Shown: positions 23,794 through 44,078, counted from the stretch's first letter. The stretch: DNA of 64,000 nt from a virus (IMGVR_UViG_3300048687_000113:45244-109243), one strand, 5' to 3'. The notes: generated by a model from the sequence alone, not told the origin. Translations and numbers: made by a program.

Positions 23794-23853
23794 ACCGTCC
23801 GCCGCTCATCCCTACTCGCATCCGGCGGCCCCACCAGCCTGGAGTGAACCACC

Positions 23854-24693
23854 GTGGCAACAAACCCCGCGCCCAACGGCCCGACAGAGACCGACCCCGG
23901 CACGCCGGCCGGCCCCGCCACCGGCACCGCCGTCACCCCCGAGGGGACGGTCACCGTCCAGGACCCGCCCAAGCAGCCCGAGCAGCAGTCGCAGGCCGGC
24001 CAGGAGTCCCGCTTCACAGCGGCCGACCTGGAGCGTGTCCGCCAGGAGGAGAAGGACAAGCTCTACGGCCGCCTCTCCAAGGTGGACGAGCGGTCGGAAG
24101 CCCTGGAGGCGGAGCTGAAGGAGCTTCGCGAGGAGCGCCAGGCCCGCGAAGCCGAGGAGGCCCAGCGCCAGCAGTCCGAGGCGGACGAGGCCAAGCAGAA
24201 GGCCGAGGCCGAGATGAGCGCGAAGAAGCTCCTCCAGGAACGCTCTTCGGAGTGGGAGAAGCGCTTCGAGCAGATCGAGCGGGAGCGGGAGCAGGAGCGG
24301 GCAGCGCTCGCGAAGGAGAGCGAGTACAACCGGCTGCGCGCCTACATTCAGGAGCGTGCCGGCGCGGAGCGCGACAGCATTGCTCCGGAACTTGTGGACC
24401 TCATTGCCGGGAACTCTCCGGAAGAGGTCGACGCGTCCATTGAGATGCTCAAGGACAAGACGCAGGCAATCTTCCAGTCCGTTCAGTCGGCCCAGGAGAC
24501 TGCGCGTTCGCAGATGCGCGGTGTGGCCGCCACCGGGTACACCGGGAACGGCCCGACTGACGGCGACGGCGGCTCTCGTCAGCTTTCTGCGGACGACATC
24601 AAGAACATGCCGATGGCCGAGTTTGCGAAGTATCGGAACCAGCTTCTCGGCGCCGCCGCACAGAAGACGAACAATCGCGGCCTCTTCGACTGA
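23854..24693 (+). CDS. capsid scaffolding protein
   Basis: Acidic coiled coil between portal and capsid; C-terminal IKNMPMAEFAKYRNQLL. Confidence 0.85.
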   Translation: MATNPAPNGPTETDPGTPAGPATGTAVTPEGTVTVQDPPKQPEQQSQAGQESRFTAADLERVRQEEKDKLYGRLSKVDERSEALEAELKELREERQAREAEEAQRQQSEADEAKQKAEAEMSAKKLLQERSSEWEKRFEQIEREREQERAALAKESEYNRLRAYIQERAGAERDSIAPELVDLIAGNSPEEVDASIEMLKDKTQAIFQSVQSAQETARSQMRGVAATGYTGNGPTDGDGGSRQLSADDIKNMPMAEFAKYRNQLLGAAAQKTNNRGLFD

Positions 24694-24775
24694 CCGCGTC
24701 CACCCTGAAAAGTAGCCATACCGCCTCTCGTTCCCATTCATCTCGGCGGGCCCGTCACGGGATGAGAGGTACAAC

Positions 24776-25918
24776 GTGGCAAGCGGAATCACCGGTACTC
24801 CGGTTCTGTCCCCCACTCCGACCGCCTACCAGGCGGCCAACTCCAGCATGCTCACGCCGGCCATTCAGCATATCTGGAGCAAAGAAATCCTGTTTCAGGC
24901 GATGCCGGTGCTTCGCTTCGAACAATTCATGGTCAAGAAGACCGAGCTTGGTACTGCTCCCGGCCTTTCGGTGTCGTTTATGCGGTACCGCTCGCTGGAC
25001 GGAGCGCAGCAGCTCGTCGAGGGCGTCCGCATGGAAACTCATGCGCTTTCCGCCGAGCAGATCACCATTACCGTGGCGGAGCACGGCTTTGCCATTGCAG
25101 TGACGGAACTCCTGCTCAATGCGAGCTTCGACGACGTGATGGCGTCCGGCGCGCGCCTCCTCGGCCGCAACATGGCCACCTACCTGGACTCGATGTGCCG
25201 GGACACGCTGCTCGGGGCTCCGTCGGTTCTGTATGGGTATGACAAGCTCGCGTCGTGGTCGGCTGGTGCCGCGCGGACGCCGCTGTCGCCGTACGACCGT
25301 GGCATGTTTGCAGACAGCGAGGCCACGATGGCTGCAAACGGCGGCTTTCACTTCACGTCTGCGCTGGTCAAGGACGCAGTCGAGACCCTGGCGACGAAGA
25401 ACGTGCCCCGATTGGGTGAAACGTACGTTGCATTCGTACATCCTCACCAAAGCCGCCGGCTCCGCGATGATCCCGAGTTCATCGAGGTGACAAAGTATGC
25501 GGCTCCCGGCAACTTTATGCTGGGAGAAATCGGACGTCTGAACGATGTCGTCTTCATCGAGACAACTCAGGTCTTCCAGGGCAATACGAACCAGCCGGCG
25601 ACCCCGCAGCTCGGCACGAACATCGCCCAGGGCGGCGCCCAGAGCTGGGGCGGACAGCCGGCCCGCAGCGCTTCCGGATCGGCTCCGGCAATTCCTGCCG
25701 TGAACGCTCAGCCGTCGAATCCGAGCGCCCCGTCCAACCCGATCTACCGTGCGCTCGTAATTGGCGACAATGCGGCCGGCCACGCCATTTCCCTCCCTGT
25801 CGAACTAAGGGATGGGGGTGTGCTCGATTTCGGCCGCGAGCATGCGCTTGCATGGTACAGCATTTGGGGACTCGGGCTGATCACGGACTACGCCGTGGTC
25901 CAGTGCGCGACGAACTGA
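24776..25918 (+). CDS. major capsid protein (N4-gp56-like)
   Basis: WSKEILFQAMPVLRFEQF, EHGFA, YVAFVHP, GEIGRL..V.FIET, DFGREHALAWY. Confidence 0.92.
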   Translation: MASGITGTPVLSPTPTAYQAANSSMLTPAIQHIWSKEILFQAMPVLRFEQFMVKKTELGTAPGLSVSFMRYRSLDGAQQLVEGVRMETHALSAEQITITVAEHGFAIAVTELLLNASFDDVMASGARLLGRNMATYLDSMCRDTLLGAPSVLYGYDKLASWSAGAARTPLSPYDRGMFADSEATMAANGGFHFTSALVKDAVETLATKNVPRLGETYVAFVHPHQSRRLRDDPEFIEVTKYAAPGNFMLGEIGRLNDVVFIETTQVFQGNTNQPATPQLGTNIAQGGAQSWGGQPARSASGSAPAIPAVNAQPSNPSAPSNPIYRALVIGDNAAGHAISLPVELRDGGVLDFGREHALAWYSIWGLGLITDYAVVQCATN

Positions 25919-25932
25919 CCCACCCGCAGAAA

Positions 25933-25963
25933 AGGGCGGTGGCGTCATTTTCGTCACCGCCCC
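25933..25963 (+). terminator. stem-loop after the capsid gene
   Basis: gggcggtggcg-tcatttt-cgtcaccgccc. Confidence 0.65.
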
Positions 25964-25996
25964 GAATTCAGTATCCGATTCGCTAGGAGAACACTC

Positions 25997-26383
25997 ATGC
26001 CCGCCAATCCGCGCACCAAGCGGAACCCGAAGGATCACACCGGGAACAAGAAGGCAGCCCTCGCCGAGCAGCACGCCGAAGACCTTGCCAAGCGCAAGGA
26101 CGAACTGGCGATGGACCACCAGGCGCAGAAGGCCGGCTTGGACGAGCCGATCGCCCTCGACGACAAGGGCCGGACGCTTCAGAACGTGTCCGAGGAAGCG
26201 GCCGAGGAAGGCCCGGTCGAGATCCCCCCGGAGACCGTGAATATCCGTATCGCGTGCGATCTGGAGAAAGTCACGATCGGGCAGGGCACTGCATTCGATT
26301 TCAAGGAGGGCCAGGTGTACACCGTGCCGCTTCACGTGGCTCAGCACCTGGACCGCCTCGGCTACGTGTGGCAGTGGCTCTGA
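25997..26383 (+). CDS. hypothetical head-associated protein
   Basis: AGGAG RBS; FKEGQVYTVP..VAQHL..LGY. Confidence 0.7.
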   Translation: MPANPRTKRNPKDHTGNKKAALAEQHAEDLAKRKDELAMDHQAQKAGLDEPIALDDKGRTLQNVSEEAAEEGPVEIPPETVNIRIACDLEKVTIGQGTAFDFKEGQVYTVPLHVAQHLDRLGYVWQWL

Positions 26384-26400
26384 CGGAAGGGAAGTGCCCG

Positions 26401-26778
26401 ATGGAGGCGCCCACGAGTCTCAAGGACTCCGGCATTGCCCCTGAGAAGGGCAACTGGTACGCCCTGCTTTCCGACCACGGCGACGGCGTCGGGATGCTCA
26501 CGCGCTCCTACCACTACACGAGCCCGAGCGGCGAGGAGTACCCGGACAGTGTCCGGCAGCTCTACGTCCTGGAGGTCGTCGAGCCGGCGACGTACGGCGT
26601 CGGCTACAGCACCGAGGATTCGGTGCTGTGCATGTGGCTGGCCTCTCCGACCCCGGGACGGATCGCGGTCCACCATCTGTCGCTCCCCGTCAGCCAGTTC
26701 ACCGAGCTGGTCACCGAGGGCGCTGAGCCACCCGAGTACGAAGACCTCCGGGTGCAACAGGCCGGCGGTGACCTCTGA
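26401..26778 (+). CDS. hypothetical protein
   Basis: GGAAGGGAAG upstream; coupled to the next gene. Confidence 0.65.
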   Translation: MEAPTSLKDSGIAPEKGNWYALLSDHGDGVGMLTRSYHYTSPSGEEYPDSVRQLYVLEVVEPATYGVGYSTEDSVLCMWLASPTPGRIAVHHLSLPVSQFTELVTEGAEPPEYEDLRVQQAGGDL

Positions 26779-27269
26779 TGGCGGCCAACGGGTTCATCGC
26801 CGTCCAGGGCGCCGTGTCTGCACTGGACCACCTCGCGGGGCGTTCCACGGCGCTGGAGGCAGAGTGGCTGGCCAAAACGCAGGCCGGTGATCCGCTGCCC
26901 CGGGCCACGTACCTGATGCTCCTGACCCAGGTCGTGACCGATGCCCAGACGGACATGACGACGCTGGTCGGCGCCGAGGCCGCCGGCACCGGCTACGCGC
27001 GCCAGCCCGTCCCCTGGCTGGCCGCCGCGACCGGTACCAGGACCGCGACGACCTCAGACTTGGTGCAGTTCGGCCCGTTTTCCGACCCGACGGGGCTCGC
27101 GGCCCCGGTCACGGGTGCGGCCCTGGTGACCCGGATGACGTCCTCGGCGGGGCAGCCCTCCGGGCTGTGCCTGATGGCCTGGAACCTCGCGACGGCGATT
27201 ACCACCAGCCAGAACCAGGCGTTGCAGTTGGCCGCCGGCAGTCTCCAGATGACGTTGGCGGTGACCTGA
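26778..27269 (+). CDS. virion structural protein (GYARQ family)
   Basis: TGYARQPVPW...VQFGP...LQLAAGSL. Confidence 0.7.
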   Translation: MAANGFIAVQGAVSALDHLAGRSTALEAEWLAKTQAGDPLPRATYLMLLTQVVTDAQTDMTTLVGAEAAGTGYARQPVPWLAAATGTRTATTSDLVQFGPFSDPTGLAAPVTGAALVTRMTSSAGQPSGLCLMAWNLATAITTSQNQALQLAAGSLQMTLAVT

Positions 27270-27360
27270 TGCGCTAGCACCGGCAACGACACCCAGCAAG
27301 ATCACTTAGCTAGCCAGCACTCATTCCCACTCGGTTCCGCTGGCGGGACCGGAGGCGGGA

Positions 27361-28203
27361 ATGGCTGCTCCAGCGGACATCGTCCGCAGGATTCGATCCG
27401 AGATCGGGGACCTTGAGTCACCCTTCCTCGACACGTACCTCGGCGCGGACGAGCTGTCGTCATACGACCTCTCCGAGACCGGCGTCTCCGAGGTCACCGC
27501 GAGGGTCACGACAGTGGACCCGCCGGCCACCGTCGACCTGGTCCCCGACGTCGACTACGTCCTGGACTCCGCCCAGGGACGCATCGTCCTGATCAACCCG
27601 GACTACTCGCCCCTGCACCACGGCCAGACCCTGATCGTGCGGGGGACGGCCGAGGGCCTGTTCACCGACGCCGACCTCCAGACCTATATCGGCGACGCGG
27701 TCGAGCAGCACGCATACGGCCGGAGCCTGACGACCCGCTACCGGGACGCCCACGGCTTCATCCGCTATGACCACGCCCCCATCACCCTGGAAAACCTGCC
27801 GGCCGTCGAGGAGCCGCTGGTCGCCTACCTCGCGGCCATCAACTGCCTGTGGACGCTCGCCACCGACGCGGCCACCGACATCGACATCTCCACGGCCGAG
27901 GGCACCTTCGTTCCCCGCACCCAGCGCTACCGGCAGCTCATGCAGCACATCGGGGACGCCACCACCGGACTCCAGGGCCGCTACAACACCCTCGCCCAGC
28001 AGCTCAACGTGGGCCTCGGCCGGATCGAAATGTTCACCGCCCGCCGGGTCTCGCGCACCACCAACCGGCTCGTGCCCGTCTTCAAGGAGCGCGAGTACGA
28101 CGACTCCTCGAAGCCCCAGCGGCTGCTCCCGCCGATCGACGGTGACGCGTACGACGACGAGTCGGGCGTGCCCTCCCCCGCCTACCCGGGCCTGTGGGGG
28201 TGA
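27361..28203 (+). CDS. head-to-tail adaptor
   Basis: IRSEIGD..., FTDADL, position in the neck module. Confidence 0.7.
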   Translation: MAAPADIVRRIRSEIGDLESPFLDTYLGADELSSYDLSETGVSEVTARVTTVDPPATVDLVPDVDYVLDSAQGRIVLINPDYSPLHHGQTLIVRGTAEGLFTDADLQTYIGDAVEQHAYGRSLTTRYRDAHGFIRYDHAPITLENLPAVEEPLVAYLAAINCLWTLATDAATDIDISTAEGTFVPRTQRYRQLMQHIGDATTGLQGRYNTLAQQLNVGLGRIEMFTARRVSRTTNRLVPVFKEREYDDSSKPQRLLPPIDGDAYDDESGVPSPAYPGLWG

Positions 28204-28209
28204 GCGGCA

Positions 28210-28803
28210 GTGCGTGGACGACTTGACTGGAAGCGGGGCCGGTGGAACATCAACGCGGAGACGACGCTGATCCACCGGGGCCTGCGCGGGTGGCAGCGCG
28301 CCACCGGCGACTCCTTCACGTACTTCCGCTGGCAGTACGACGAGTCGGAAATGCACCCCGTCTACGACGAGGCCACCGGCTCAGGAAAGCACTTCTACGG
28401 CCGCTTCCAGCTCCCCGCGCTGCACGTGAACCACACCGAGGCGGCAAATACGGAGCCGCGTGACAGTGGCCTGTACATCGTCGACTCGCTGCACGTCACG
28501 GCCGAGTTCGACCAGCTCGCCAAGACCGGTCTGCGGGACATCAACATCCGGCACGGCGCCTACCAGCGCGACCGCATCGCCTACGACAACTTGCTCTTCG
28601 CGGTGAAGCACGTCGACATCCGGGGGCAGATCCGCCGCCGGGACATCCTCGTCACGATCGACGCCGAGCAGCTCCGCGACGACGAGCTGGTCAACGACCC
28701 GACGTTCGCCGCGTATCTGCGGGACTTCAGCCGCAACCCCGATCCGGTGCAGCCGAAGCCTTCTCCCACACCACTGGAGGGCGGCGATGATCCCTACGCC
28801 TGA
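28210..28803 (+). CDS. head closure / neck protein
   Basis: HPVYDEA, RDRIAYD; synteny. Confidence 0.65.
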   Translation: MRGRLDWKRGRWNINAETTLIHRGLRGWQRATGDSFTYFRWQYDESEMHPVYDEATGSGKHFYGRFQLPALHVNHTEAANTEPRDSGLYIVDSLHVTAEFDQLAKTGLRDINIRHGAYQRDRIAYDNLLFAVKHVDIRGQIRRRDILVTIDAEQLRDDELVNDPTFAAYLRDFSRNPDPVQPKPSPTPLEGGDDPYA

Positions 28804-29470
28804 GATTGCCATGCCCGCGCTGCCCTCCGGGGTGCCCCTGGTGCGTCTGACCGGCCGCTTCATCGCGCCGGACGGAACGCCGCTGACCGGCAAGCTCACG
28901 TTCGCACCGCCGATGGTGATCACCCTGCCGGGCGCCGACACCATCTCTCCCATCCCCGCCACCGTGGAGATCGGCAAGGAGGACCAGGGGAGCTTCGCGG
29001 TGAACCTGATCGCCAGCGACGCCCCGGGAATGTCGCCGAGCGGCTGGACGTACCGGGTTACCGAGAAGATCACGGGCGCGCAGATGCGCGAGTACCACAT
29101 CCTGCTGCCCTGGCGGGAGGACAGCGCGTCCGTCGACCTCGCCGACCTGGCGCCCGCCTCGCCCTACACCGGCCGTTACCTGCCCGTCGTCGGAGCCACC
29201 GGACCCCAGGGTCCACAGGGCATTCCCGGGGAGGTCCAGCACACCGAGCTTCAGGCCCTGGAGGAACGCGTCGCGCCGCGACCGGTGTCGTGGACACAGA
29301 CCGTGGCGAGCACTGAATGGAACATCACCCACGCCTTCCCGTACCGGCCCGGGGTGCGCACGTACGACAACAGCGGCCGGGAGATCGGCGGCCTTGTCTC
29401 CCACCTCACCGACACCAGCGTGACCGTCCAGTTCGCCCATGCGGAGACCGGATCGGCGATTTTGAGCTAG
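28787..29470 (+). CDS. virion structural protein with short collagen-like segment
   Basis: DGTPLTG, GWTYRVTE, GATGPQGPQGIPG, WNITH...P.V. Confidence 0.75.
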   Translation: MIPTPEIAMPALPSGVPLVRLTGRFIAPDGTPLTGKLTFAPPMVITLPGADTISPIPATVEIGKEDQGSFAVNLIASDAPGMSPSGWTYRVTEKITGAQMREYHILLPWREDSASVDLADLAPASPYTGRYLPVVGATGPQGPQGIPGEVQHTELQALEERVAPRPVSWTQTVASTEWNITHAFPYRPGVRTYDNSGREIGGLVSHLTDTSVTVQFAHAETGSAILS

Positions 29471-29480
29471 GAGCCTTTTT

Positions 29481-30593
29481 ATGGCAGTGACCGATTTCCG
29501 TGAGTCCCTCCGGCTGAATTCTCTGCCCGTGCACGGGCTGGTGCCGGAGACGTCCTCCGCCCCGCCGGCCACGCCGGTGGAGGGCCAACTGTGGGCCGAT
29601 TCCGTCAACCATGTCGTGAAGTTCTGGAACCTGACGACGTGGAAGAACGCGCTCGACCGCAGTGACCACACCGGCGCGCAGCCGGCCGCCACGATCTCCG
29701 ATCTCGCCGCCACGGTGAAGGGCTACCGGCTCGACGAATTCACGGCCCCGACCGCTGCGGTTTCGCTGAACGGGCAACGGGCCACCAACGGCGCCGACCC
29801 GGTGGCCGCGACCGACCTGGCCACACGGCAGTACGTGGACAACGCCCGCGCGGGCATCGCCGGGGTGAAGGACCCCGTACGAGCAGTCGCCACTACGAAC
29901 ATCAACCTGGCCTCGCTGCCCGCCACCATCGGCGGCGTCACCATGGCCAGCGGCGACGGCTTCCTGGCGGCGGGGCAGACGACCGGCACCCAGAACGGCA
30001 TCTACGTCTACGGCTCGTCCGGCGGCTCTGCCACCCGCCGTTCGGACGCCGACCTCCTCGGGGACATCCGCGACGGCACGATGGTGGCAGTGGCCGAGGG
30101 CACGGACGCCGGCACCCAGTACATCCAGACCGCCACTGCCTCCGGTGCTCCGGGTGCCTGGACGCAGACGTGGGTCAAATTCAGCACCGGCGGTCAGACC
30201 TACACCGCCGACGGCCAGGGCCTGGAGCTGTCCTCCACGACGTTCTCCCTGGAGCTGGCCGACGCCACCCTCTCGAAGTCGGCGGCCGGTCTCACCATCG
30301 GCATGGTGCCCATCTCCAAGGGCGGCACAGGTGCGACGACGGCCGCAGGAGCACGCAGTGCTCTGAGCGCGGTGGGCAAGTACGCGGCCAATGTGCCTGC
30401 CATTACCGGCGGGACGCCCCTTCAGATCACGCACGGGCTCAACACGATGGACGTCCAGGAGCCGACACTGCGCGAGATAGCCACCGGTGAACTCGTGGGC
30501 GTAAAGCCCGTCGTGGTCGACGCCAACACCATCTCAATCACCACGGCATCGTCGTATCCCGCCGGCACCTTCTCGATTGTGGTGATCGGCTGA
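29481..30593 (+). CDS. fiber / head-decoration-like structural protein
   Basis: DRSDHTGAQ, ADPVAATDLATRQYVD, QTTGTQNGIYV, ITHGLNT. Confidence 0.8.
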   Translation: MAVTDFRESLRLNSLPVHGLVPETSSAPPATPVEGQLWADSVNHVVKFWNLTTWKNALDRSDHTGAQPAATISDLAATVKGYRLDEFTAPTAAVSLNGQRATNGADPVAATDLATRQYVDNARAGIAGVKDPVRAVATTNINLASLPATIGGVTMASGDGFLAAGQTTGTQNGIYVYGSSGGSATRRSDADLLGDIRDGTMVAVAEGTDAGTQYIQTATASGAPGAWTQTWVKFSTGGQTYTADGQGLELSSTTFSLELADATLSKSAAGLTIGMVPISKGGTGATTAAGARSALSAVGKYAANVPAITGGTPLQITHGLNTMDVQEPTLREIATGELVGVKPVVVDANTISITTASSYPAGTFSIVVIG

Positions 30594-30802
30594 TGGCCGG
30601 CCGTCAACTCGCCTCGCAGACAGTGCCCACCACCGGCGGCAACGTGCTCACCACCGACAAGGTCGGCGCAGTCTCGGGGGTCGCCGGCCTCGACACCGGC
30701 GGCAAGGTCCCCCAGAGTCAGCTCCCCACCCCGAAGATCACCGTCGGCACCACGGCGCCCGTGTCCCCCGCTGTCGGGGACGTGTGGATCGACACGAACT
30801 GA
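30593..30802 (+). CDS. small structural protein
   Basis: GVAGLDTGGKVP..QLP; VGTTAP..PAVGDVWIDT. Confidence 0.75.
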   Translation: MAGRQLASQTVPTTGGNVLTTDKVGAVSGVAGLDTGGKVPQSQLPTPKITVGTTAPVSPAVGDVWIDTN

Positions 30803-31539
30803 TGGCACGGCTCGTCACATGCGGGTTCGAAGCGAAGTCGGCCTCGGAGTGGGGCGGTACCGAGGGCACCGCCCCCGTCTTCTCGACGACGGTGAAGAAC
30901 AGCGGCACCGCGTCGGCCCGCTTCCAGAACACGACCGCGTCGGCCCGCTCGATCCGCTTCGCTGCCTACGCGGACGACGAAACAGGCAAGCTGAAAAACG
31001 TCTTCATCCGCGCCTACGTCCGGCTGGACACGGCGCCGGCCGCGCAGACCGCGATCCTCGCGTGGGATGACACGACCGGGATCGGGACAGCGTCCTTCTA
31101 CGGCATCAAGATCAACACGAACCGGACGCTGATCTGCACCTCGTCCACCGGGACTACCGGGACCGCGTCGGCCGCGCTGACGCTCGGTACCTGGTACCGG
31201 CTGGAGATGAACTACAACGAGGTGGCGAAGCAGGCGACGCCGTACCTCAATGGCACTGCGTGGGCGTCGCCGATTTCCGCTGACCTGGGTGGTGGCCACT
31301 GGGCGCGCTTCGGGATTATCAACTCCACCACGGCCGACATCTATTTCGACGATATCGCGGTCAATGACTCCACGGGGACTATCGACAACGGTTTGCCCGG
31401 GGCGATCAGTACTTCCACCGGAGTCCCGGCGAAAGTGTGGACAGGCAGTGCCTGGGCCACGAAGCCGGTCAAGGTGTGGACGGGCAGTGCCTGGGCCCCG
31501 AAAACGGTGCGGGTACGCACGTCCACAGCCTGGCGATAG
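30802..31539 (+). CDS. ConA/LamG-like virion protein
   Basis: GTWYRLEM, IYFDDIAVND, KVWTGSAW repeats. Confidence 0.7.
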   Translation: MARLVTCGFEAKSASEWGGTEGTAPVFSTTVKNSGTASARFQNTTASARSIRFAAYADDETGKLKNVFIRAYVRLDTAPAAQTAILAWDDTTGIGTASFYGIKINTNRTLICTSSTGTTGTASAALTLGTWYRLEMNYNEVAKQATPYLNGTAWASPISADLGGGHWARFGIINSTTADIYFDDIAVNDSTGTIDNGLPGAISTSTGVPAKVWTGSAWATKPVKVWTGSAWAPKTVRVRTSTAWR

Positions 31540-31618
31540 CGGACGGAATTATCAGGCGGTGAAAAAGGCGTGCCACGCTCACATTCCACCTCTTGCCGTT
31601 CCTAGCCGAGGAGTTTTC

Positions 31619-31882
31619 ATGGCTCGCTACGTTGCTGTCAGCATCTACGACTACGACAAGCTGATCAAGGACGGGCCGTTCGAGATCAACGACCCGTCCG
31701 AGCAGATCGTCGAGGAGGGGCAGCGCCTCATGCTGGAGGAAGTGGCCCTGGCCGCCGGCTACCACTACGCCGAGGGCGCCGCCTTCTCCGAGGCCGAGGG
31801 GCATGACCACGGAAAGCACCGTGGGCACGAGAAGCGCGACGGCGACAAGCACGGAAACCGCAAGCGCGACCACGACAAGTAG
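31619..31882 (+). CDS. small protein with His/Lys/Asp-rich tail
   Basis: GAGGAG RBS; own ATTATC-N20-CACGCT promoter. Confidence 0.65.
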   Translation: MARYVAVSIYDYDKLIKDGPFEINDPSEQIVEEGQRLMLEEVALAAGYHYAEGAAFSEAEGHDHGKHRGHEKRDGDKHGNRKRDHDK

Positions 31883-31913
31883 TTCCCGCATCTGCGCGAG
31901 AAGGGAGCGGGCT

Positions 31914-31994: not shown

Positions 31995-32085
31995 CCTGCA
32001 CACGAACTGGCAGCCATTAACCGCTGCCAAATAGCCGGAAGCATTCTGGTGGGGCGATCCACATACGCCCATACCGGAGAGTTCC

Positions 32086-35036: not shown

Positions 35037-35113
35037 CCGACACCAACCAGCTTTACCGCCTCTCATTCCCACTCGTTTTCGGCGGCCCTCCGACCGGGAT
35101 TGAGAGGTGACCA

Positions 35114-35698
35114 GTGGGAGCCACGACCACAACGCAGAAGCCTTCGCTCGCACAGCTCCAGACGGACCCCCTGAGGAATTTCAAATTTCAGGTGATGATT
35201 CACCTGGCGAATTCCACGCTGGACTCCAGCAAGCGGTCCAACCAACTGGGCTTCATGTCCGTTTCCGGCCTGTCGATCACCACGGACGTGGTGGTCTACC
35301 GGCAGGGCGGCATGAACACAACAACGCAGAAAATGCCTGGTCAGAGCGATTTTGCCCCCATCACGCTCTCGCGTGGGCTCATCTGTGGCGACTCCGACAT
35401 CTACGCCTGGCTGAAGCAGCTCTTCATGGTCATGCAGGGCACCGGCGGAAATGACGGCTCCTACAATTTCCGCGCCACGATGGACATCTTCCTCCTCGAC
35501 CACCCGGTGACCACGTCGAGTGTCACCTATAAGGCCGGTTGGCGCGTCTACAACTGCTGGCCGACCTCAATTGCATTCGGCGATCTCGACAGTGGCGCGA
35601 ACGGAGTTGAACTCCAGCAGATCACCCTCGCGCACGAAGGTTGGGATTTCAAGATCGCCAGCAAGTACGGGCCGGGCTCCGGCATTTCCCTGCCGTAA
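35114..35698 (+). CDS. tail tube protein (T4 gp19-like)
   Basis: DPLRNFKF, GFMSVSGL, YRQGG, ITLSRG, NCWP, TLAHEG. Confidence 0.93.
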   Translation: MGATTTTQKPSLAQLQTDPLRNFKFQVMIHLANSTLDSSKRSNQLGFMSVSGLSITTDVVVYRQGGMNTTTQKMPGQSDFAPITLSRGLICGDSDIYAWLKQLFMVMQGTGGNDGSYNFRATMDIFLLDHPVTTSSVTYKAGWRVYNCWPTSIAFGDLDSGANGVELQQITLAHEGWDFKIASKYGPGSGISLP

Positions 35699-35728
35699 TT
35701 CCGACCCCATTCAAAGGACGACACGATC

Positions 35729-36586
35729 ATGACTGAACCCATTGCGCTCCCCGACTTCGACGCCTTCGGCGACCAGGCCATCAAGGGGCTCGACAACCCT
35801 GACCAGGCCACCGCAGCCACCCAGGCCCTCCTCAAGGAGGACCGGAATTCCGGCGAGCCCCAGATCAGCGAGCCCGCCGAAAACTGCCTCACCCTGGAGC
35901 GCGGCATCTGCCGCGAAGGAACCTGGTCCCGCGACGCAGAGGTGAAGGAACTCACCGGGGCCGACGAAGAAGCAATCGCCGCCGCCGGCAGCAACTCGTA
36001 CAAGGTCTTCGAGACCCTGCTGCTGCGCGGCACCGTCTCCGTCGGCAACGAACCCATGACGCGGGCCCTGGCCAGCGAACTCCTCATCGGGGACCGCGAG
36101 TACCTCGTCATGGCCATCCGCCGCGCGACGTTCGGCGACGACCTCGAATTCGTCGAACTCCCCTGCCCCCACTGCAACGAACTCGTCGACCTCACCGTCC
36201 CGCTCGACGCAGTGCCGTTCACCCGCCTCGACGACCCCGAGCAGACCGAGTTCGAGGTCCCCCTGCGGCACGGTGACAGCGCGGTGGTCCGCCTCCCCAC
36301 GGGCGAGGACCAGGCGGCCGTCTTCGCCGTCAGGGACGGCAACACCGCCAAGCAGGACAGCGTCGTCCTCGACCGCTGCGTACTGCGCCTCCGGCACGCC
36401 GACGGGACCGAGACCAAGCGCCCGCCGGCCGCCTCCCTGGCCATGAGCGCCCGCAAGGAAATCCTCGCGTTCCTCACGAAGACCCAGCCGGGCCCCCGCT
36501 ACGCGGACTTCTCCTTCACGCACGACCCGTGCGGAAAGGAGGTCCCGCTGCCCATCTCGCTGGCTGTGCTGTTTCGCGGAATGTGA
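35729..36586 (+). CDS. tail assembly chaperone (T4 gp26-like)
   Basis: ELTGADEE, LLIGDR..L..IRRATFG, CPHC, RLPTGEDQ; between tube and tape measure. Confidence 0.8.
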   Translation: MTEPIALPDFDAFGDQAIKGLDNPDQATAATQALLKEDRNSGEPQISEPAENCLTLERGICREGTWSRDAEVKELTGADEEAIAAAGSNSYKVFETLLLRGTVSVGNEPMTRALASELLIGDREYLVMAIRRATFGDDLEFVELPCPHCNELVDLTVPLDAVPFTRLDDPEQTEFEVPLRHGDSAVVRLPTGEDQAAVFAVRDGNTAKQDSVVLDRCVLRLRHADGTETKRPPAASLAMSARKEILAFLTKTQPGPRYADFSFTHDPCGKEVPLPISLAVLFRGM

Positions 36587-36728
36587 CTACCGCCGCGCAT
36601 TCAGCGAGATCGAAATCCTCACCCTCGTCCACCCCGCCTGGCAACTGACGGAAATCAAGAGCCTCTCCATCCGTGAACGGCGCCACTGGATCAGCCGAGC
36701 CGCCTGGGAAGTAGAAAGGAGGGCGTAA
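36573..36728 (+). CDS. startless +1-frame extension of the tail assembly chaperone
   Basis: DYRRAFSEIEILTLVHPAWQLTEIKSLSIRERRHWI; no start codon; stop abuts the tape measure GTG. Confidence 0.65.
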   Translation, partial: FAECDYRRAFSEIEILTLVHPAWQLTEIKSLSIRERRHWISRAAWEVERRA

Positions 36729-39629
36729 GTGGCCACCCCACCCCCGCCGCCCAATCCGCCCCCCGCCCCGACGAACCAACTCGGCAACCAGATCGACGCC
36801 TTGACCAGGGCGTTCACCAGTTTCACCAACCGGTTCGCGAGTTCGGCCGGCCTCGGCACGCTGAGCATGGGGGCCTATGGCCCCATGGGCGGACAGACCC
36901 GCCAGGATCACCAGCTCGGCAATCTCCAGCAGCAGTACCTCCAGACGAACCAGGCGCACATCGTCGCCCGCCAGCGCATGGAGGACGACGTCCAGCAGCA
37001 GCAGATCCGCTGGGCACAGCAGCGGCGCACGCAACTGGGCATCATCAACAATCCGAGGTCCACGCTCGCCCAGGAGACCGAGGCCCGCCAGCGCCTCGGA
37101 GAGGGCTCGCAGCTCAACCGGATTCGCACGGACGCCATCGACCGCGACTGGCAACTGCGGGAGAACAACTTCTCCGGGTCGATGGTCCGCATGAACTCCG
37201 ACATGGACCGGCTGCGCCAGCAGTCCGCCCAGACGACCACCATGAACCGGCTCGCGTTCGCCGGCCAGGTCACCGGCTCCGTCGTCGGGGCCGCGAGGAG
37301 CTACTACAGCGGCGACATCGAAGAACAGCTCGGCCAGTTCGAGCGGCGCCTGTCACTCCAGCGTCCCTCGTGGAAGGGCACCTCCGGCGAGCGAGCGCGC
37401 AGCCTCGGCTACGAGATGAAGCGCAACGGCTCGCTGCTCTGGGCCACCTCGAACGAGGACGCCATCGGCGGGCAGACGGACATCCTCAACCAGAACCCCT
37501 ACGACCAGTACACGCGTCAGACCCGCCGGGCCACCGGAGCCGCCTACGTCACCCCCGGCCTGGGCGTTCAGGGCGGCGCGCAGATGCAGCAGGAACTCGG
37601 CACCGGTCAAGCCTTCTACGCGTCCCAAATGTTCGGCCTGGCGCCGACGCGGTTCGGCGGCGGTGAGCAGAATTCCCCGGCCGCGATGGCGCTGTCGCTC
37701 GCGCAGAGGGTGAATGGCGGTGACTTCAAGAACCTGACTGGCTCCGAGCTGCATGCCCAGCTCGCCCAGGGCGGCTCGCTGTCCATGTCGATGGCCAACT
37801 GGGGCAAGGCTGCCGGGGTTTCCGGCCAGTCGCTCGAAGCCATGCGCAACCAGACCGAGCTTCTGCGCGACTTGGTCAACCCGGAGAAGAAGGGCCTGAA
37901 GGGGGTTTCGGAGAAGCGTGCTCTGAAGCTGATCGAAAACGCGGGCCGGCACGACGACACCGGCGAAGAGTCCCGCGAGGAGATTCAGAAGTACTCCGAC
38001 AGCGTCGGCAAGAGCTACCAGGACTCCCAGCGCTTCCTCGCCGGCACCAGCCGCGAGGGGCATCTGCCCGCCAGCGCCAGCTTCCTCGACGCCGCGCGGG
38101 CCAGCGCCGACACCCTCGCCGACATCAAGACGATTCTGCAAAAGGCCCTCGAACCGATGGCCGACGCGATCGGCTCCGTGGCCGGCAGCTCCAAGGGAGG
38201 CGGGTTCTGGGGGTCGTTGGGGTCCGGCCTGAAGTCCGGGTGGAACTGGGGCGACAACCTCGTCTTCGGCGACGCCGGCGAGGGGACCGAACAGGACTCC
38301 CTCGCCAAGAAGGCATGGCGGGGCATCAGCGGGATCTTCGGCGGTGATTCCGGTACGCCGGAGTCCAAGCAGGGCAGCTCGGGGAAGAAGAAGTCGGACT
38401 CGGCCGGCGTCGCGGGCGGCGGCGTCAGCAGCGCCATCGGATTCGCCCGCGCGCAGCTCGGCGACCGCTACGTGCTGGGCGCCACCGGCCCCAACGCCTG
38501 GGACTGCTCAAGCCTCATGCAGGCCGCCTACAAGAAGGCCGGCGTCAACCTGCCGCGAGTCACCTACGACCAGATCAAAAAGGGCGTCGAAGTCCCGATG
38601 GACGAGATCAAGCCTGGCGATCTCGTGTTCTACAAAGACCTCTCCCACGTCGGGATGTACACCGGAAGCGGCAAAGTACTCGAAGCCGCGAATCCCGGGC
38701 GAGGCGTCGTCGAAGGCCCGATGTACTCAAAGTTCAAGAGGGCCCGGCGCGTTCTGGCCGGCGGCATGGAGGCCAAGGCCAGCCTTTCCGGAGAGAACGA
38801 AGATCCGACCTCTTCGCAGTCCGGAGGCGGCGGACTCAAGATATCGGGCGCCTACGGGTCCGTAGAAGAGGTCGACGCGCTTGCCGCAGCATTGTCGGGC
38901 GGCGGCGGTGACCAGGCCGTCAGCCGCACCCCGAGTGCCTCGCAGAACGAAGAGGCCGAGGACGAGGGGAGCAGCGACGCCGGCAAGGATGCCCCGCACA
39001 ACGTGCAGAAGAACGTCGCACTCGGCAAGAAGATGGCCGCCTCCTACGGCTGGACGGGCAGTAACTGGACCGCGCTCTACAAGCTGTGGATGGGCGAGTC
39101 CGGGTGGCGGCACTGGGCCGACAACCCCAACTCCGACGCGTACGGCATCCCGCAGGCGATGTCGAACATCCATAAGGAGACCGCGACTGCCGCCTGGCGC
39201 AACTCCCCCGAGAAGCAGATCGCTTGGGGTCTGAAATACATCAAGGGCCGCTACGGCAGCCCCTCCCGGGCGTGGTCGTTCTGGAACTCCAAGAGTCCCC
39301 ACTGGTATGCCGACGGCGCATGGGAAGTGCCGGGACAGTCCGGTGAAGGCATCGACGCGAAATTGCACGGCGGCGAAATGGTGCTGGAGCGCAATGCCGC
39401 TCACACCGTCCGCCAGGCGCTCCTCAACCAGGGACTGACACCGTCACCGAACCAGGGCTCTGGCGCCTCCGGCGGCTCCACGGGGTCGGTCACGCTCCAG
39501 TTCGGCGCCGGCTCCGTCGTCGTGCAGATGCCGGCCGCCACCGCCGAGGGCGCGAAGTCGGCCGCCAGCTCCTTCGTCAGCTACGTCGCCGCCGACGACC
39601 GCATCAAGTCCCTGATGGGGGGCTGGTAG
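36729..39629 (+). CDS. tape measure protein with NlpC/P60 and lytic transglycosylase domains
   Basis: QLGDRYVLGATGPNAWDCSSL...SHVGMY (NlpC/P60); LWMGESGW...AYGIPQA...QIAWGLKYIKGRYGSP (SLT); LHGGEMVL. Confidence 0.9.
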   Translation: MATPPPPPNPPPAPTNQLGNQIDALTRAFTSFTNRFASSAGLGTLSMGAYGPMGGQTRQDHQLGNLQQQYLQTNQAHIVARQRMEDDVQQQQIRWAQQRRTQLGIINNPRSTLAQETEARQRLGEGSQLNRIRTDAIDRDWQLRENNFSGSMVRMNSDMDRLRQQSAQTTTMNRLAFAGQVTGSVVGAARSYYSGDIEEQLGQFERRLSLQRPSWKGTSGERARSLGYEMKRNGSLLWATSNEDAIGGQTDILNQNPYDQYTRQTRRATGAAYVTPGLGVQGGAQMQQELGTGQAFYASQMFGLAPTRFGGGEQNSPAAMALSLAQRVNGGDFKNLTGSELHAQLAQGGSLSMSMANWGKAAGVSGQSLEAMRNQTELLRDLVNPEKKGLKGVSEKRALKLIENAGRHDDTGEESREEIQKYSDSVGKSYQDSQRFLAGTSREGHLPASASFLDAARASADTLADIKTILQKALEPMADAIGSVAGSSKGGGFWGSLGSGLKSGWNWGDNLVFGDAGEGTEQDSLAKKAWRGISGIFGGDSGTPESKQGSSGKKKSDSAGVAGGGVSSAIGFARAQLGDRYVLGATGPNAWDCSSLMQAAYKKAGVNLPRVTYDQIKKGVEVPMDEIKPGDLVFYKDLSHVGMYTGSGKVLEAANPGRGVVEGPMYSKFKRARRVLAGGMEAKASLSGENEDPTSSQSGGGGLKISGAYGSVEEVDALAAALSGGGGDQAVSRTPSASQNEEAEDEGSSDAGKDAPHNVQKNVALGKKMAASYGWTGSNWTALYKLWMGESGWRHWADNPNSDAYGIPQAMSNIHKETATAAWRNSPEKQIAWGLKYIKGRYGSPSRAWSFWNSKSPHWYADGAWEVPGQSGEGIDAKLHGGEMVLERNAAHTVRQALLNQGLTPSPNQGSGASGGSTGSVTLQFGAGSVVVQMPAATAEGAKSAASSFVSYVAADDRIKSLMGGW

Positions 39630-39712
39630 CAGCCATCGCCCCGCACTGTTTCTGAGACTCATGGCCAGCCTTCATTTCTGCTCGGTTCCGCTGGCGGAAC
39701 TGGAGGCTTCAC

Positions 39713-40435
39713 ATGGCCGAGAAGAAGTCGGACGGTCCGGTCAATCTGCCAGCCAAGGGGATCTGGGAGAACACGTTCGACCGCCGAATCCAGAACATCC
39801 CTTCTTACCTTCCCGGCGAGCCGGGGACCAGCTTCGGGCTCCAGCGGGGCTACATGGTCTCCGCGTTCCCGAAGGACAGCAAGGCCAAGAAAAACCGGTT
39901 CTACATGCTGAATTTCCTGTACAACCCGTCGCAGGTCAGCGTGAACCACAGTACCGACGCAGCGAATCAGGTCATGCCGGCGTACACGCGCTCCGACTTG
40001 GACAACGGGATGCCGTTGGTAGCGGCGGGCGGCTCGCTGTCCTTCGCGCTGCTTTTCGACCGCACCTACGAGATGTCGGACCCCACCAAGTTCGACACGA
40101 TCGAGGGCACATACGGGGTGATGGCCGATGTGCACGTGCTCTACAACCTCCTCGGCATCACCGCGACGCAGAAGGTCAAGGAAACCGGCAGTGAGGGCGA
40201 CAACACCTACGACGGCAACGTGCTCGGCATTATGCAGATGAGCCCGCTGTGGTGTCGCTTCGGGCAGGCCCGCCACTCTTTCAAGGACAAGCTGCCGGCG
40301 ATCTCCAGAATGGAGTACTTCGGGTACGTCAACAACATCGGGATTACCTATAGCCATTTCACGCAGCGTATGACGCCTGTGCGGTGCGCCGTCGACATCA
40401 GCATGACGCTCATGTCGTCCTACGGATGGGTGTGA
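39713..40435 (+). CDS. tail tube initiator / baseplate protein
   Basis: FLYNP, LSFALLFDRT, YSHFT..M.P.RC. Confidence 0.75.
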   Translation: MAEKKSDGPVNLPAKGIWENTFDRRIQNIPSYLPGEPGTSFGLQRGYMVSAFPKDSKAKKNRFYMLNFLYNPSQVSVNHSTDAANQVMPAYTRSDLDNGMPLVAAGGSLSFALLFDRTYEMSDPTKFDTIEGTYGVMADVHVLYNLLGITATQKVKETGSEGDNTYDGNVLGIMQMSPLWCRFGQARHSFKDKLPAISRMEYFGYVNNIGITYSHFTQRMTPVRCAVDISMTLMSSYGWV

Positions 40436-40444
40436 GGAGAGGCA

Positions 40445-40729
40445 ATGGCCATTTCCCGGACGTCGCGATATCAGCGCAACGCGACGGCACTCGTCGCCGA
40501 CCGCAAAGGGCAGCTCCAGCTCGCCGTGATGCAGCGCTCGCCCACCGACCAGTCGCTGCGTGTGTCGGACTACCGGTGGCGCAGCGGCGAGCGTGTCGAC
40601 TCCGTCGCCAGCGAGTACTACGGCAGCGAGACGAGCTGGTGGATGTACGCCGAGGCGAACCCGCAGGTGCTCGACTGGACGAATCCGCCGGCCGGCCTTC
40701 AGATCATGGTGCCCCGTGGCGTGGCGTAA
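40445..40729 (+). CDS. LysM-like baseplate protein (gpX/gp53-like)
   Basis: SRY, GERVDSVASEYYG...WW..AEANP. Confidence 0.85.
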   Translation: MAISRTSRYQRNATALVADRKGQLQLAVMQRSPTDQSLRVSDYRWRSGERVDSVASEYYGSETSWWMYAEANPQVLDWTNPPAGLQIMVPRGVA

Positions 40730-41915
40730 CACGTACAAGCCCCATCTGACGGCCTCGCAGCCCGCGTTGGAGAGCGGCGCGTGGCTGTCGAGCTTCGAGC
40801 TGTATCAGGCCGAGCAGGCGCACCAGGTCGCCGAGCTGACGGTGATGCACACCTACAACCCCGCGCTGCCCTCCCAGCAGTGGCGGACCCCGGCCGGGTC
40901 GGTGTGGGCGGAGAACACGCCGGTTCATCTGAAGTTCGGGTGGTGGGCGGACGACAGCGCCGACTGGTACGGGTACGTGGCCTCCTCCCGGGTGCTCGCC
41001 TCGGAGAGCGATCCCCGTTATGGGCACGCGGTGCAGATACCCGTGGTCTACACGCTCACCGGCACCAGCATGCTGACGCAGACCCGCCGCAACCGGACCT
41101 GGCGCGACACCTCGGCGTCCGCCATTGCGAGGACAGTGGCCTCCGAGTACAACCTTCAGCCGCGAGTCGACGGCTCCAGCGTGGTCTTCGCGCAGCAGAT
41201 GCAGTCCATGAGCGACTGGCAGTTCCTGTGCGACATCTCCGACCAGATCGGCTACCGCGTCTACGTGGACGGCACCGTGATGTGGTTCGTGGACCGCGAG
41301 ACGGTCATGCCGGCCTCCGACGGGAGCGTGCCTACGTTCCGGATGACTAAGGCGCCCGGGGCCATCGACACCTTGCGCGAGTTCTCGGCCGTCCTGGGCG
41401 ACACGGACCCCGCAGGAGGCGTCCGGGCGCGGTACCAGGCAGTGGCCTACAACCGCACCTCCAGCGTCCTCACACCGGCCACGTACTCCCAGAGCCGGAC
41501 CACTTTGCACGGGCAGCAGGTCGCGGCCCTCCTGGACCGGCAGTACGGCGACCGGCCGGCCGCGTCCTACAACCAGGCGAACCGGCTGCTGGCCGCCGAG
41601 TCGGACTGGCTGTGGGTCGAGGCCCGCGCGGAATCCAACGGGGACCCGCGCCTGAGGCCGGGCACACTCGTGGACCTCCAGGGCAACGCGGTCGGCGAGA
41701 GCAATCTGGGCCTGTGGATGGTGCGTTCCGCCGTCCACAAGATCAACATCAACCTGGTGTACCCGCAGAAGACGACGTACACCTCCACCCTCGTGCTCGG
41801 CCGCAACGACGCCCGCAAGTTGGACCTTCGGGTGCAGCAGCCGCCCGTGCATCCCGCGCCGACCGTCCTCGTCAACGGCCGCTGGCGGGCCGCGTACACG
41901 GGAGGGCTGACATGA
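40716..41915 (+). CDS. baseplate hub (gpD/gp27/VgrG-like)
   Basis: SASAIA..VA, SDWQFL, GDPRLRPG..V, G.WMVRSAVH. Confidence 0.85.
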   Translation: MAWRNTYKPHLTASQPALESGAWLSSFELYQAEQAHQVAELTVMHTYNPALPSQQWRTPAGSVWAENTPVHLKFGWWADDSADWYGYVASSRVLASESDPRYGHAVQIPVVYTLTGTSMLTQTRRNRTWRDTSASAIARTVASEYNLQPRVDGSSVVFAQQMQSMSDWQFLCDISDQIGYRVYVDGTVMWFVDRETVMPASDGSVPTFRMTKAPGAIDTLREFSAVLGDTDPAGGVRARYQAVAYNRTSSVLTPATYSQSRTTLHGQQVAALLDRQYGDRPAASYNQANRLLAAESDWLWVEARAESNGDPRLRPGTLVDLQGNAVGESNLGLWMVRSAVHKININLVYPQKTTYTSTLVLGRNDARKLDLRVQQPPVHPAPTVLVNGRWRAAYTGGLT

Positions 41916-42883
41916 CGGCTCTGTACGGGACCTACAGCGCCATCGTGGTCTCCGCCCAGGACCCGCAGCATCGCGGCCGGGCGCAACTGCGCATCCCCCA
42001 GATCATGGGGACGGCGGTGAGCGGCTGGGCAGTGCCGGTCACCCTCGGCGCGGTCCTGCCCGGCGACCAGGTGTACGTGATGTTCGACGGCGGCGACCGC
42101 TCGGTGCCGCTGTTTTGGCCTCAGCCGCGCGGCGGCGCACAGGGCTGGGTTCCACTGTCGCTGTCGGCCGGCTGGGCTCCTGGCATCAACGGGACGCCGT
42201 CGGCCCGCCTCGGCCAGGACGGCATGATCGAGCTGGCAGGGTCGATCACCACCGACACCCTCAGCGTCGGCGTCTCCACGAAGTTCTCGGCACTGCCCGG
42301 CGGCCTCGGCCGGCCGGTGCACCGGGTTATCCAGCCGGTCGCCACCGACTACCGCACCGCCTTCCGCTCCACGGTCGCGTTCGCCGAGTACCGCATCTCG
42401 CATTCGGTGACCTCCACGAGCTACGGCCCCGATGCCAACGGGCCCGTCGCCACGTTCGTCGCCCCCGGCAGCGGCGCCGCCGCCATCGTCTTCGGCGCAC
42501 ACGTACAGAACACGGTCAGCACAGGGCGTGCCGTAATGAGCCTCCAGGTCTCGGGAACCACCGGCGTGGTCGCCCCGGCCGACGACAACCACGCGGCGGA
42601 AGGCCAGAGCGCCAACAACGCCACCGTCGCCGGCTCCTACTTCCTGACCGGGCTCACCCCCGGCTCGACGTACACCGTCACCGCGATGTACCGCTCCGAC
42701 GGCACCAACAACTCGGCCACCTTCGACAACAAATGGATCACCGTGACGCCCACCGTCATGGACAACTCGCCGATGGCCCGCATCGCCGTCGAGACCAGCG
42801 GAGAGCTGCGCGCGCTCTTCGCCGCCTCGCACTATCCGCCGTACGCGGCCTCGCTGGACGGCGTGCGCGTGCGCGCCGTGTAA
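41912..42883 (+). CDS. baseplate spike (gpV/gp5 OB-fold) with C-terminal extension
   Basis: YGTYSAIV...DPQHRGR..L.IPQ, SGWA.P, PGDQVYVMFDGGD..PLFW. Confidence 0.85.
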   Translation: MTALYGTYSAIVVSAQDPQHRGRAQLRIPQIMGTAVSGWAVPVTLGAVLPGDQVYVMFDGGDRSVPLFWPQPRGGAQGWVPLSLSAGWAPGINGTPSARLGQDGMIELAGSITTDTLSVGVSTKFSALPGGLGRPVHRVIQPVATDYRTAFRSTVAFAEYRISHSVTSTSYGPDANGPVATFVAPGSGAAAIVFGAHVQNTVSTGRAVMSLQVSGTTGVVAPADDNHAAEGQSANNATVAGSYFLTGLTPGSTYTVTAMYRSDGTNNSATFDNKWITVTPTVMDNSPMARIAVETSGELRALFAASHYPPYAASLDGVRVRAV

Positions 42884-42896
42884 AGGAGAGAAGGCA

Positions 42897-43988
42897 GTGG
42901 CCTACCCGAACTTCCGCCACCTGGCAGCCGACAAGATCCTCGGCATCGACTACGACATCAAGAACCGCTACGGGTCGGGCACCTACCTGCTGCATGCCGC
43001 GATCCACGGCGGCGGCATCGAGCCGCCCACCTCCCAGCTCGCGGCCTACTGCGCCGGCGACGGCGCCTGGTACTCCTTCGAGGCCCTCAACGACCTCACC
43101 GCCCAGACCGTCAAACTGCCGGCCGTAGCCTTCGACGAGCCGTTCTGCGTCGTGAACGCCGGCAACTCCAGCCGGACCGTGGTGTGGCACGGCGTGGACG
43201 ACCAGCGCGAGGCCGAGCAGGTCACGTACATCAGCGGCGCCGACTCCGTGCTGGCCTCGCTGATCGTCCAGGAACTCGTCGCCGCCGGCTTCCAGACCGA
43301 CCGCGCCCCGGTCACGTTCGAGGGCGAGACCCCGCAGAACATCTGCAACCGCAACAAGGCTCGGGCAGGTGTCCAGCTCGACCTCTCCTACACCCTGCGC
43401 AAGTCGTTCTACGCGAGCGGGGACCTCTCCACGGCCGCCCTCTCCCAGCCCGACAACCGGCTGCCGGCCTTCTTCGCCTACGGCGACGCCATCCGCCGGG
43501 CCTGCGCCCAAGTCCCCCTGGCGAGCGACACCGACGACGTCCCGCCGGTCATCACCCAGCCGCGCACGCCCGCCAGCCAGGACGTCAGCACCGCCATGCG
43601 CACCCCCTTCGCCATCGACCACTCCGGCGGTGTCTCGGCCACCACCGACGAGCGCGAGCAGCTCGTGGACCGGGTGCACGCCCTGGTGGGCACGCTGCCC
43701 GGTGAGCGCGTCATGCGCGCCACCTACGGTGTGCCGACCTCGGCCTCCCTGTTCGCGATCAACCCGGAGATCGCCAATGATCAGTTGCAGCGGGCCGTCA
43801 TCGACGCCGTCGCGCAGTTCGAGCCGTCCGCCGTGGTCTCCGCCATCGTCGCCGACGTGAACGAGAACCTGGGCTCGGTCAACGTCAACGTCCAGGTGAG
43901 CCGCGCCGACGTGCCCGGCGCCGAGCGCGACAACACGCGGTCGGTCGGCGTCCTGGTGGGCGGCACCGTCATTTCCACTCCGGAGTAA
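42897..43988 (+). CDS. poly-gamma-glutamate hydrolase (PghP-like) fused to gp25/gpW baseplate wedge domain
   Basis: AIHGGGIE.PTS, YSFEAL, FDEP, WHG, NICNR, GVQLDL; C-terminal PFAID...TLPGERVMRATYG...AVAQFEP. Confidence 0.85.
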   Translation: MAYPNFRHLAADKILGIDYDIKNRYGSGTYLLHAAIHGGGIEPPTSQLAAYCAGDGAWYSFEALNDLTAQTVKLPAVAFDEPFCVVNAGNSSRTVVWHGVDDQREAEQVTYISGADSVLASLIVQELVAAGFQTDRAPVTFEGETPQNICNRNKARAGVQLDLSYTLRKSFYASGDLSTAALSQPDNRLPAFFAYGDAIRRACAQVPLASDTDDVPPVITQPRTPASQDVSTAMRTPFAIDHSGGVSATTDEREQLVDRVHALVGTLPGERVMRATYGVPTSASLFAINPEIANDQLQRAVIDAVAQFEPSAVVSAIVADVNENLGSVNVNVQVSRADVPGAERDNTRSVGVLVGGTVISTPE

Positions 43989-44078
43989 TTAACGGGCATT
44001 CCGCCTGCCTCCGTAGAATCCCCTTATCAGGCCAGCACTCATTTCTCATTCGGTTCCGCTGGAGGAAACCGAGAGGAA

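Follow-up and report, generated by a model that had tools for sequence, protein, structure and literature searches.

In the DNA stretch IMGVR_UViG_3300048687_000113:45244-109243, a 64,000-nt window that makes up the right-hand 64 kb of a 109,243-bp IMG/VR virus record, we found six copies of a motif of about 30 nt, all on the plus strand and each in an intergenic gap of the late gene block, which we read as the 5′ part of a cis-acting mRNA leader governing translation initiation of late structural genes. We put the probability of this reading at about 0.5. Each copy is a 5-bp GC stem around a 19–21-nt C/U-rich loop, and the 5′ half of the motif is complementary to the Shine-Dalgarno (SD) and start-codon region downstream of it. 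The sequence anatomy of the motif and this complementarity, together with its conservation and mobility among related phages, are direct observations.

The six sites lie where the initial annotation had placed them (Table 1), with loops of 19–21 nt and with the stems divided as it described, CCGCC/GGCGG in three copies and CCAGC/GCTGG in the other three. From the 3′ arm of the stem to the start codon, the distances are 25, 26, 17, 28, 18 and 25 nt for copies 1 to 6, which upholds the proximity to gene starts proposed earlier (16–28 nt) with a measured range of 17–28 nt. The figure of 16 nt applies to copy 6 if the first in-frame GTG, at 44079, is taken as the start, and the GTG nine positions further on is the likelier start because one relative (G002) has an in-frame stop directly after the equivalent of the first. 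Copy 1 begins 5 nt past the portal stop codon. Within the loop, an 8-mer (consensus CTCATTCC) is repeated in tandem every 10 nt. A degenerate pattern of the motif gave 9 matches compared with 2.67 expected, a count reached in 0 of 100 shuffles, and the six sites scored best among them; a profile hidden Markov model (HMM) built from the copies matched exactly six places when run over both strands of the 109,243-bp genome, all on the plus strand and all intergenic, leaving no seventh copy in the 109 kb. As for the names given to the genes that follow, capsid, tail tube and baseplate wedge/J are borne out by PHROGs matches, ‘scaffold’ goes back to where the gene lies and to how its counterpart in phage Alone3 is annotated, and ‘adaptor’ and ‘tube initiator’ have no family match, so that these two labels are not verified. 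The motif fills six of the eight large intergenic gaps in the head-to-baseplate part of the late block; the two motif-free gaps are one before the long tail gene and one with a strong hairpin just 3′ of the capsid gene. The latter hairpin (25934–25962) has a perfect, GC-rich stem of 11 bp and a 7-nt loop, begins 15 nt after the capsid stop and lacks a T run. It may act as a terminator without a tail, or stabilise the capsid message at its 3′ end.

Table 1. Motif copies and the promoter-like pair in the late gene block (window coordinates)
Feature	Class	Coordinates	Strand	Details
Copy 1, before scaffold-position gene	A	23799..23856	+	arms 23799-23803/23824-23828; SD GGAG 23841-23844; GTG 23854
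Copy 2, before major capsid gene	A	24721..24778	+	arms 24721-24725/24745-24749; GTG 24776
Copy 3, before adaptor	B	27270..27363	+	arms 27314-27318/27339-27343; SD GGAGG 27351-27355; ATG 27361
Copy 4, before tail tube gene	A	35056..35116	+	arms 35056-35060/35081-35085; GTG 35114
Copy 5, before initiator	B	39630..39715	+	arms 39665-39669/39690-39694; SD GGAGG 39702-39706; ATG 39713
Copy 6, before baseplate wedge/J	B	44032..44090	+	arms 44032-44036/44058-44062; SD 44071-44079; likely start GTG 44088
Host-type promoter-like pair		43989..44019	+	TTAACG 43989-43994; TAGAAT 44014-44019; 19-nt spacer

For comparison we used nine genomes, the phage itself (G000) and eight relatives (G001–G004, G006, L203, G011 and G012), the latter contributing 28 of the 34 copies. 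All 34 are co-oriented and stand directly before start codons. The small stem is paired in 170 of 170 alignment cells across these copies, compared with 22–62% in slid controls; its third position is G-C, A-U or G-U and its fourth C-G or G-C, and the G-U variant pairs only as RNA and breaks the symmetry of the DNA. Of the 34 copies, 30 form the small stem when the motif is folded by itself.

The consensus structure given by RNAalifold is not this small stem; it is an occluding hairpin of 12–23 bp, depending on the site, in which the helix over the SD and start region is paired in 87–96% of cells. At the class A capsid and tube sites, the helix has 12 bp closing a loop of 24–29 nt, with 96% of the cells paired compared with 38–55% when the partner is slid; in copy 2 the 5′ strand 24724–24734 pairs with 24759–24769, which holds the SD, and in copy 4 the SD lies within the 3′ strand 35096–35109. 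At the class B sites (baseplate, adaptor and initiator), the second repeat pairs as well, giving hairpins of 20–24 bp that include the start codon, with energies of −30 to −35 kcal/mol, and z-scores of −2.3 to −4.0; in 7 of 7 cases the sense strand folds more stably. Both the SD and the ATG of copy 3 fall in the 3′ strand of a predicted hairpin of about 20 pairs. The baseplate group has the most stable folds of the whole set: RNAalifold finds 23 pairs there, and copy 6 itself forms a 23–24-bp hairpin running from 44030 to 44093 (−31.6 kcal/mol). The complementarity between loop and ribosome-binding region noticed in the initial annotation is thus real, and more extensive than described.

The 3′ partner of this helix varies in sequence and register from site to site and always covers the SD/start region, and the spacing between the strands varies by 1–5 nt among orthologues; judged from these alignments, a site-varying partner fits selection for occlusion and not a fixed DNA palindrome. 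One-sided substitutions are mostly wobble-compatible, and the hand-paired baseplate helix of G000, G011 and G012 contains one U-A, U-G, C-G series. For four of the six copies, the complementarity of the motif to its own start lies in the top 0–7% of values for about 130 other start sites, and when 136 start regions are ranked by predicted accessibility, four of the six fall within the lowest 17. At the capsid gene, the predicted probability that the start is unpaired is 0.18–0.31 in motif-bearing genomes compared with 0.40–0.68 in GC-matched relatives that lack the motif, with the exception of one such relative, L077 (0.30).

The occluding hairpin has the 5′ arm of the small stem at its base and the 3′ arm within its loop, so that the two folds are mutually exclusive; two conserved helices that exclude each other are, as modelled, the layout of a two-state element. 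Once the start region is included, the balance tips towards the closed fold, by 0.4–23 kcal/mol (mean 9.2) overall and by 15–23 kcal/mol in four of the six class B site groups. If the small stem is imposed, the predicted unpaired fraction of positions −15 to +3 is about 0.6, up from about 0.3. Once transcribed, the C/U-rich 5′ half with its tandem 8-mer would act as an anti-SD mimic, pairing with the purine-rich SD, and in class B also with the start codon, to form the 12–24-bp hairpin as a default OFF state. The 5-bp stem, in which the first five bases of the motif pair with a segment in the loop of the occluding hairpin, would form first during transcription and compete with the closed fold, and if it were held the start site would be left largely open (ON). 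From this anatomy we infer action at the RNA level, a switch and a factor acting in trans: the choice of fold would be set by something made in lytic growth, possibly a protein on the small stem-loop, or a cut that parts the two strands. The late structural genes would then be kept translationally quiet by default and be opened in lytic growth, and a lysogen would benefit from such silence, above all where the host-type promoter precedes the baseplate gene (Table 1). As another means of controlling these starts we considered translational coupling by an upstream ribosome and rejected it, since the preceding stop is close enough only for the scaffold copy, at 5 nt; before the capsid, tube and baseplate genes, 21–43 nt separate it from the beginning of the motif.

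Several results weigh against a translational leader, beginning with the structures themselves. The stem variants separate the paralogue classes and so represent very few evolutionary events: in what the initial annotation called a compensatory change, pairing is kept in all copies, and the three-versus-three split reflects two paralogue subfamilies, that is, one or two events and not six independent ones. Covariation overall likewise comes from few independent events. Chimeras joining the 5′ and 3′ halves of different orthologues are as stable as the native pairs, which implies that there is no fine-grained co-evolution between orthologues and that conservation dominates over covariation. A pyrimidine-rich motif pairs with any SD to some degree, and two of the six start sites have ordinary predicted accessibility. 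Copy 1 has the weakest occluding pairing (about 6 bp, to the SD; fold z about −0.7), the scaffold copies as a group fold no better than shuffled sequence, and neither they nor the class A copies have a sense-strand advantage. In these folding models, an advantage of up to 23 kcal/mol for the closed fold would be hard to reverse by binding alone, making a simple equilibrium switch, one that has no kinetic control, cleavage or strong binder, unlikely. Given the large energy gap of class B, equilibrium binding is less plausible than an irreversible cleavage or than capture of the small stem while the RNA is being transcribed. Of the two-state, SD-occluding RNA that had been proposed, we therefore keep the occluding leader as the best reading, with both helices conserved and exclusive, and not the equilibrium switch, in view of that gap.

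The search for a trans-acting factor adds to these objections. The KTSC protein, suggested earlier as a possible binder, was rejected because it is a conserved core gene in four relatives that lack the motif, so there is no specific link. No Com-type zinc ribbon (PF10122) was matched in the genome, and Pfam searches of ten clade-specific open reading frames (ORFs) gave nothing RNA-related and no informative domains. Phylogenetic profiling for a clade-specific factor was abandoned as not discriminating, as it returned more than 100 candidate ORFs, many of them spurious. No antisense or trans RNA complementary to the loop is encoded elsewhere in the genome, the minus-strand matches being at noise level.

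A further objection comes from transcription signals. No sigma-70-type promoter or terminator exceeds chance within the 45-kb co-directional late block, the block contains no plus-strand match to a sigma-70/HrdB-type promoter (16–18 spacing) inside the motif, and no intrinsic terminator (GC-rich hairpin plus T run) occurs at any motif site on the plus strand. The lack of sigma-70-type signals leaves room for a promoter of unknown type and makes internal promoters of that kind plausible, so that the 30-bp motif might act as DNA, as a phage-specific late promoter or as a site where a phage transcription factor recognises the tandem 8-mers (10-bp period) and their inverted copy, with the SD complementarity as a by-product. 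We consider this unlikely, though several properties would suit it: conservation is mainly of sequence, with core positions invariant in 34 of 34 copies, a spacing of one helical turn between direct repeats is characteristic of DNA-binding sites, and the chimera tests and the missing strand asymmetry of class A are as expected of such a site. However, no copy precedes the first late genes (the terminase region) or lies anywhere else in the 109 kb, the distance to the start codon is tightly constrained, the partner stays over the SD and start in spite of its changing sequence and register, the spacing between the supposed half-sites varies, and the G-U stem variant preserves the RNA pair while losing DNA symmetry. 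In addition, no sigma region 2 is encoded. The only sigma-like candidate is a plus-strand ORF of 182 aa (2288–2836) with a weak sigma-70 region-4-type helix-turn-helix, which we rejected as cognate factor because it is absent from G001, a close relative that bears the motif.

The baseplate site also bears on this question, since a standard promoter-like pair already stands just upstream of copy 6. It directly follows the stop codon of the preceding gene and ends 12 nt before the motif; its −10 hexamer is identical in six genomes and its −35 in five (G012 has TTATCG), and the spacer of 18–19 nt is freely variable. The promoter scanner missed TTAACG/TAGAAT because of the 19-nt spacer. From this conservation, TTAACG-N19-TAGAAT is likely a host (HrdB-type) promoter inside the late block; with a promoter 12 nt upstream, the copy 6 hairpin would sit at the 5′ end of the transcript, and at this copy the motif is probably a transcribed leader.

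The hairpins may alternatively serve RNA processing or stability, as cleavage sites for host RNase III or another nuclease or as protective 5′ or 3′ hairpins, cutting the polycistronic late mRNA into segments of different stability. Phage T7 has repeated RNase III processing hairpins between its cistrons, as a rule without an SD and start codon, and both systems place paralogous intercistronic hairpins before genes in long phage transcripts. The 20–24 irregular bp of class B resemble those repeated sites, copy 6 lies within a few nt of a predicted 5′ end, and irreversible cleavage, which could unmask the SD, would solve the problem of the large energy gap. By contrast, the class A helices, with about 12 bp and large loops, are too short for a typical site and would be poor RNase III substrates, the invariant 5-bp stem is left unexplained, and a double-strand cut could destroy a start site whose SD and start codon lie inside the helix. 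On balance, processing as the primary role seems to us quite unlikely.

The motif is unevenly distributed among relatives. At the scaffold, capsid, tube and baseplate sites, every clade genome whose sequence covers them has the motif, and the intergenic DNA flanking it is scarcely alignable. The adaptor and initiator copies are found only in G000, inside insertions of 91 nt (27270–27360) and 83 nt (39630–39712), respectively. In relatives, the adaptor start lies 1–5 nt past the preceding stop (G001, G002, G003, G011 and G012), and the initiator start either overlaps the long tail gene’s stop codon or is at most about 11 nt from it; both insertions carry motif, SD and start codon and are placed precisely at those tight junctions. 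An extra copy precedes the portal reading frame in G001 and G011 only, which are not each other’s closest relatives. Relatives with a capsid identity of 85% or less lack the motif altogether, a profile scan of 161 related loci (1.2 Mb) found it only in the close clade, and there were no analogous repeats near the capsid gene of more distant relatives. Given the patchy presence and the absence at or below 85% capsid identity, this sequence comparison indicates that the element is young, limited to one lineage and gained or lost as a unit. Since the adaptor and initiator genes abut their neighbours in every relative, motif, SD and start codon form a self-contained, portable start-site cassette that has been copied into new gene junctions.

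A scan of IMG/VR with the exact 14-mer loop core gave 66 single matches, all by chance in unrelated contexts, and a 19-mer scan of 596 Gb of genomes also yielded mostly chance matches (L316 among them), together with two real Streptomyces prophages. Other small hairpins occur between the scaffold and capsid genes of two motif-less relatives: in L077 (about 3530–3577) a 5-bp stem takes in part of the SD, and in L082 (about 5950–6003) a 7-bp stem extends across the scaffold stop codon.

The motif could also be a repeat whose copies recombine with one another and so spread it, with a slight regulatory role at most and SD pairing that is simply tolerated. We regard this as very unlikely. The patchy distribution, with two copies unique to G000 and the pre-portal copy in G001 and G011, and the confinement to one shallow clade are what such a repeat would produce; against it, the four shared sites keep the motif throughout the clade amid unalignable flanks, both helices are conserved, and the motif never occurs in opposite orientation or away from a start codon. 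The insertions also speak for a function, as they replaced tight gene junctions before two genes of the virion-assembly module: being tolerated there, the cassette must permit adequate expression, which argues for a regulated start and against a dead, purely repressive or junk element.

The leader reading can be extended, tentatively and on the doubtful side, to a translational switch that is copied and inserted as one self-contained cassette (anti-SD repeat, anti-occluder stem, SD and start codon) and would define a ‘late translational regulon’ among temperate Streptomyces myophages of one clade. An H-type pseudoknot with both helices coexisting might form, virion genes would stay silent in the lysogen even behind host-type promoters until a phage factor or nuclease opened all copies together, and the cassette would have spread by replacing translational coupling. 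Little has been documented in actinophages about how late virion genes are controlled post-transcriptionally, and the element offers a concrete, testable anatomy of two conserved competing helices around the SD. The two junctions found with and without the cassette in close relatives are natural insertion ‘experiments’, and the integrated relatives in Streptomyces sp. NPDC058257 and sp. AD2-2 could be induced. Should the element indeed work as a switch, translation control in Streptomyces engineering would gain a compact, portable part.

SD-sequestering platforms such as RNA thermometers and riboswitches pair an upstream anti-SD strand with the SD and free it through an alternative helix, and both an upstream anti-SD strand and an alternative helix are predicted here too. 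Unlike them, our element is multi-copy and portable and has neither an Rfam match nor a ligand-binding aptamer: Rfam 15 covariance models gave 0 matches at E values up to 1 over positions 19000–46000, so no ligand-binding aptamer or known RNA family is present in that range. [quoted passage not shown]

The function of SAS/ESAS is described as still experimentally unverified in the part of the source that treats them (PMC12699233), and these repeats have stood without a mechanism since 2011. As characterised in those passages, they too are repeated, co-oriented actinophage elements tied to start codons, the set of genes carrying them varies among relatives, and an SD-containing block is combined with an upstream inverted repeat. 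The sequences are unrelated, however: the 13-nt SAS consensus (up to 2 mismatches) has 2 matches here compared with 2.34 expected, neither at a motif site. The ESAS are given there as 17-bp imperfect arms 4–13 bp apart, whereas here 5-bp arms stand 19–21 nt apart and a longer helix reaches into the SD; our element is found on late structural genes of a myovirus, and SD occlusion is predicted for it, while the SAS/ESAS passages report none.

In the Com-mom system, a stem keeps the start site closed, and binding to a small hairpin next to it changes the fold so that translation can proceed (PMC6483171). Sequestration of the start site in a stem of the free mRNA is common to both, in our case by prediction only; Mu has a single target gene compared with six here, and this phage encodes no Com-type zinc ribbon. 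PeSL cassettes combine an early promoter with a terminator stem-loop and flank shuffled accessory genes (PMC2839356; PMC4122927). Both systems have short repeated intergenic cassettes at insertion/deletion boundaries between close relatives, but here the cassette alone is inserted, between conserved core genes, carries SD and start codon, and contains no recognisable promoter or terminator.

The phage record has a G+C content of 66%, and from 19317 to the window end all credible genes are on the plus strand, with terminase, portal, major capsid, sheath, tube, long tail protein and baseplate wedge/J recognised as families in the late block. The capsid has about 62% identity to those of the Streptomyces myophages BRock, Alone3 and LuckySocke, and the nearer relatives are five IMG/VR contigs (G001–G004 and G006), one metagenome contig (L203) and two integrated prophages, G011 in Streptomyces sp. 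AD2-2 and G012 in Streptomyces sp. NPDC058257, the latter apparently intact. Because these much closer relatives include prophages in Streptomyces strains, the host is, by this kinship, Streptomyces. The phage is probably temperate: an integrase-family ORF on the minus strand (18193–19212; Pfam score below the cut-off) adjoins the late block, as does a minus-strand ORF of DUF5753 regulator type (11365–12306), and taken with the integrated relatives these ORFs point to a BRock-like myovirus of about 109 kb whose lifestyle is temperate. In G000, G001 and G002, the portal N-terminus is a separate small ORF (window 22079–22330) in a frame other than that of the main portal ORF, with a TTA codon at the junction of the two, and G003 reads uninterrupted through the matching stretch. 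In the AD2-2 prophage (L417/L418, chromosome about 4.488–4.528 Mb), the alignments of portal, capsid, adaptor, sheath, baseplate and further genes are broken into at least two pieces; this prophage appears to be decaying, yet it retains five copies of the motif.

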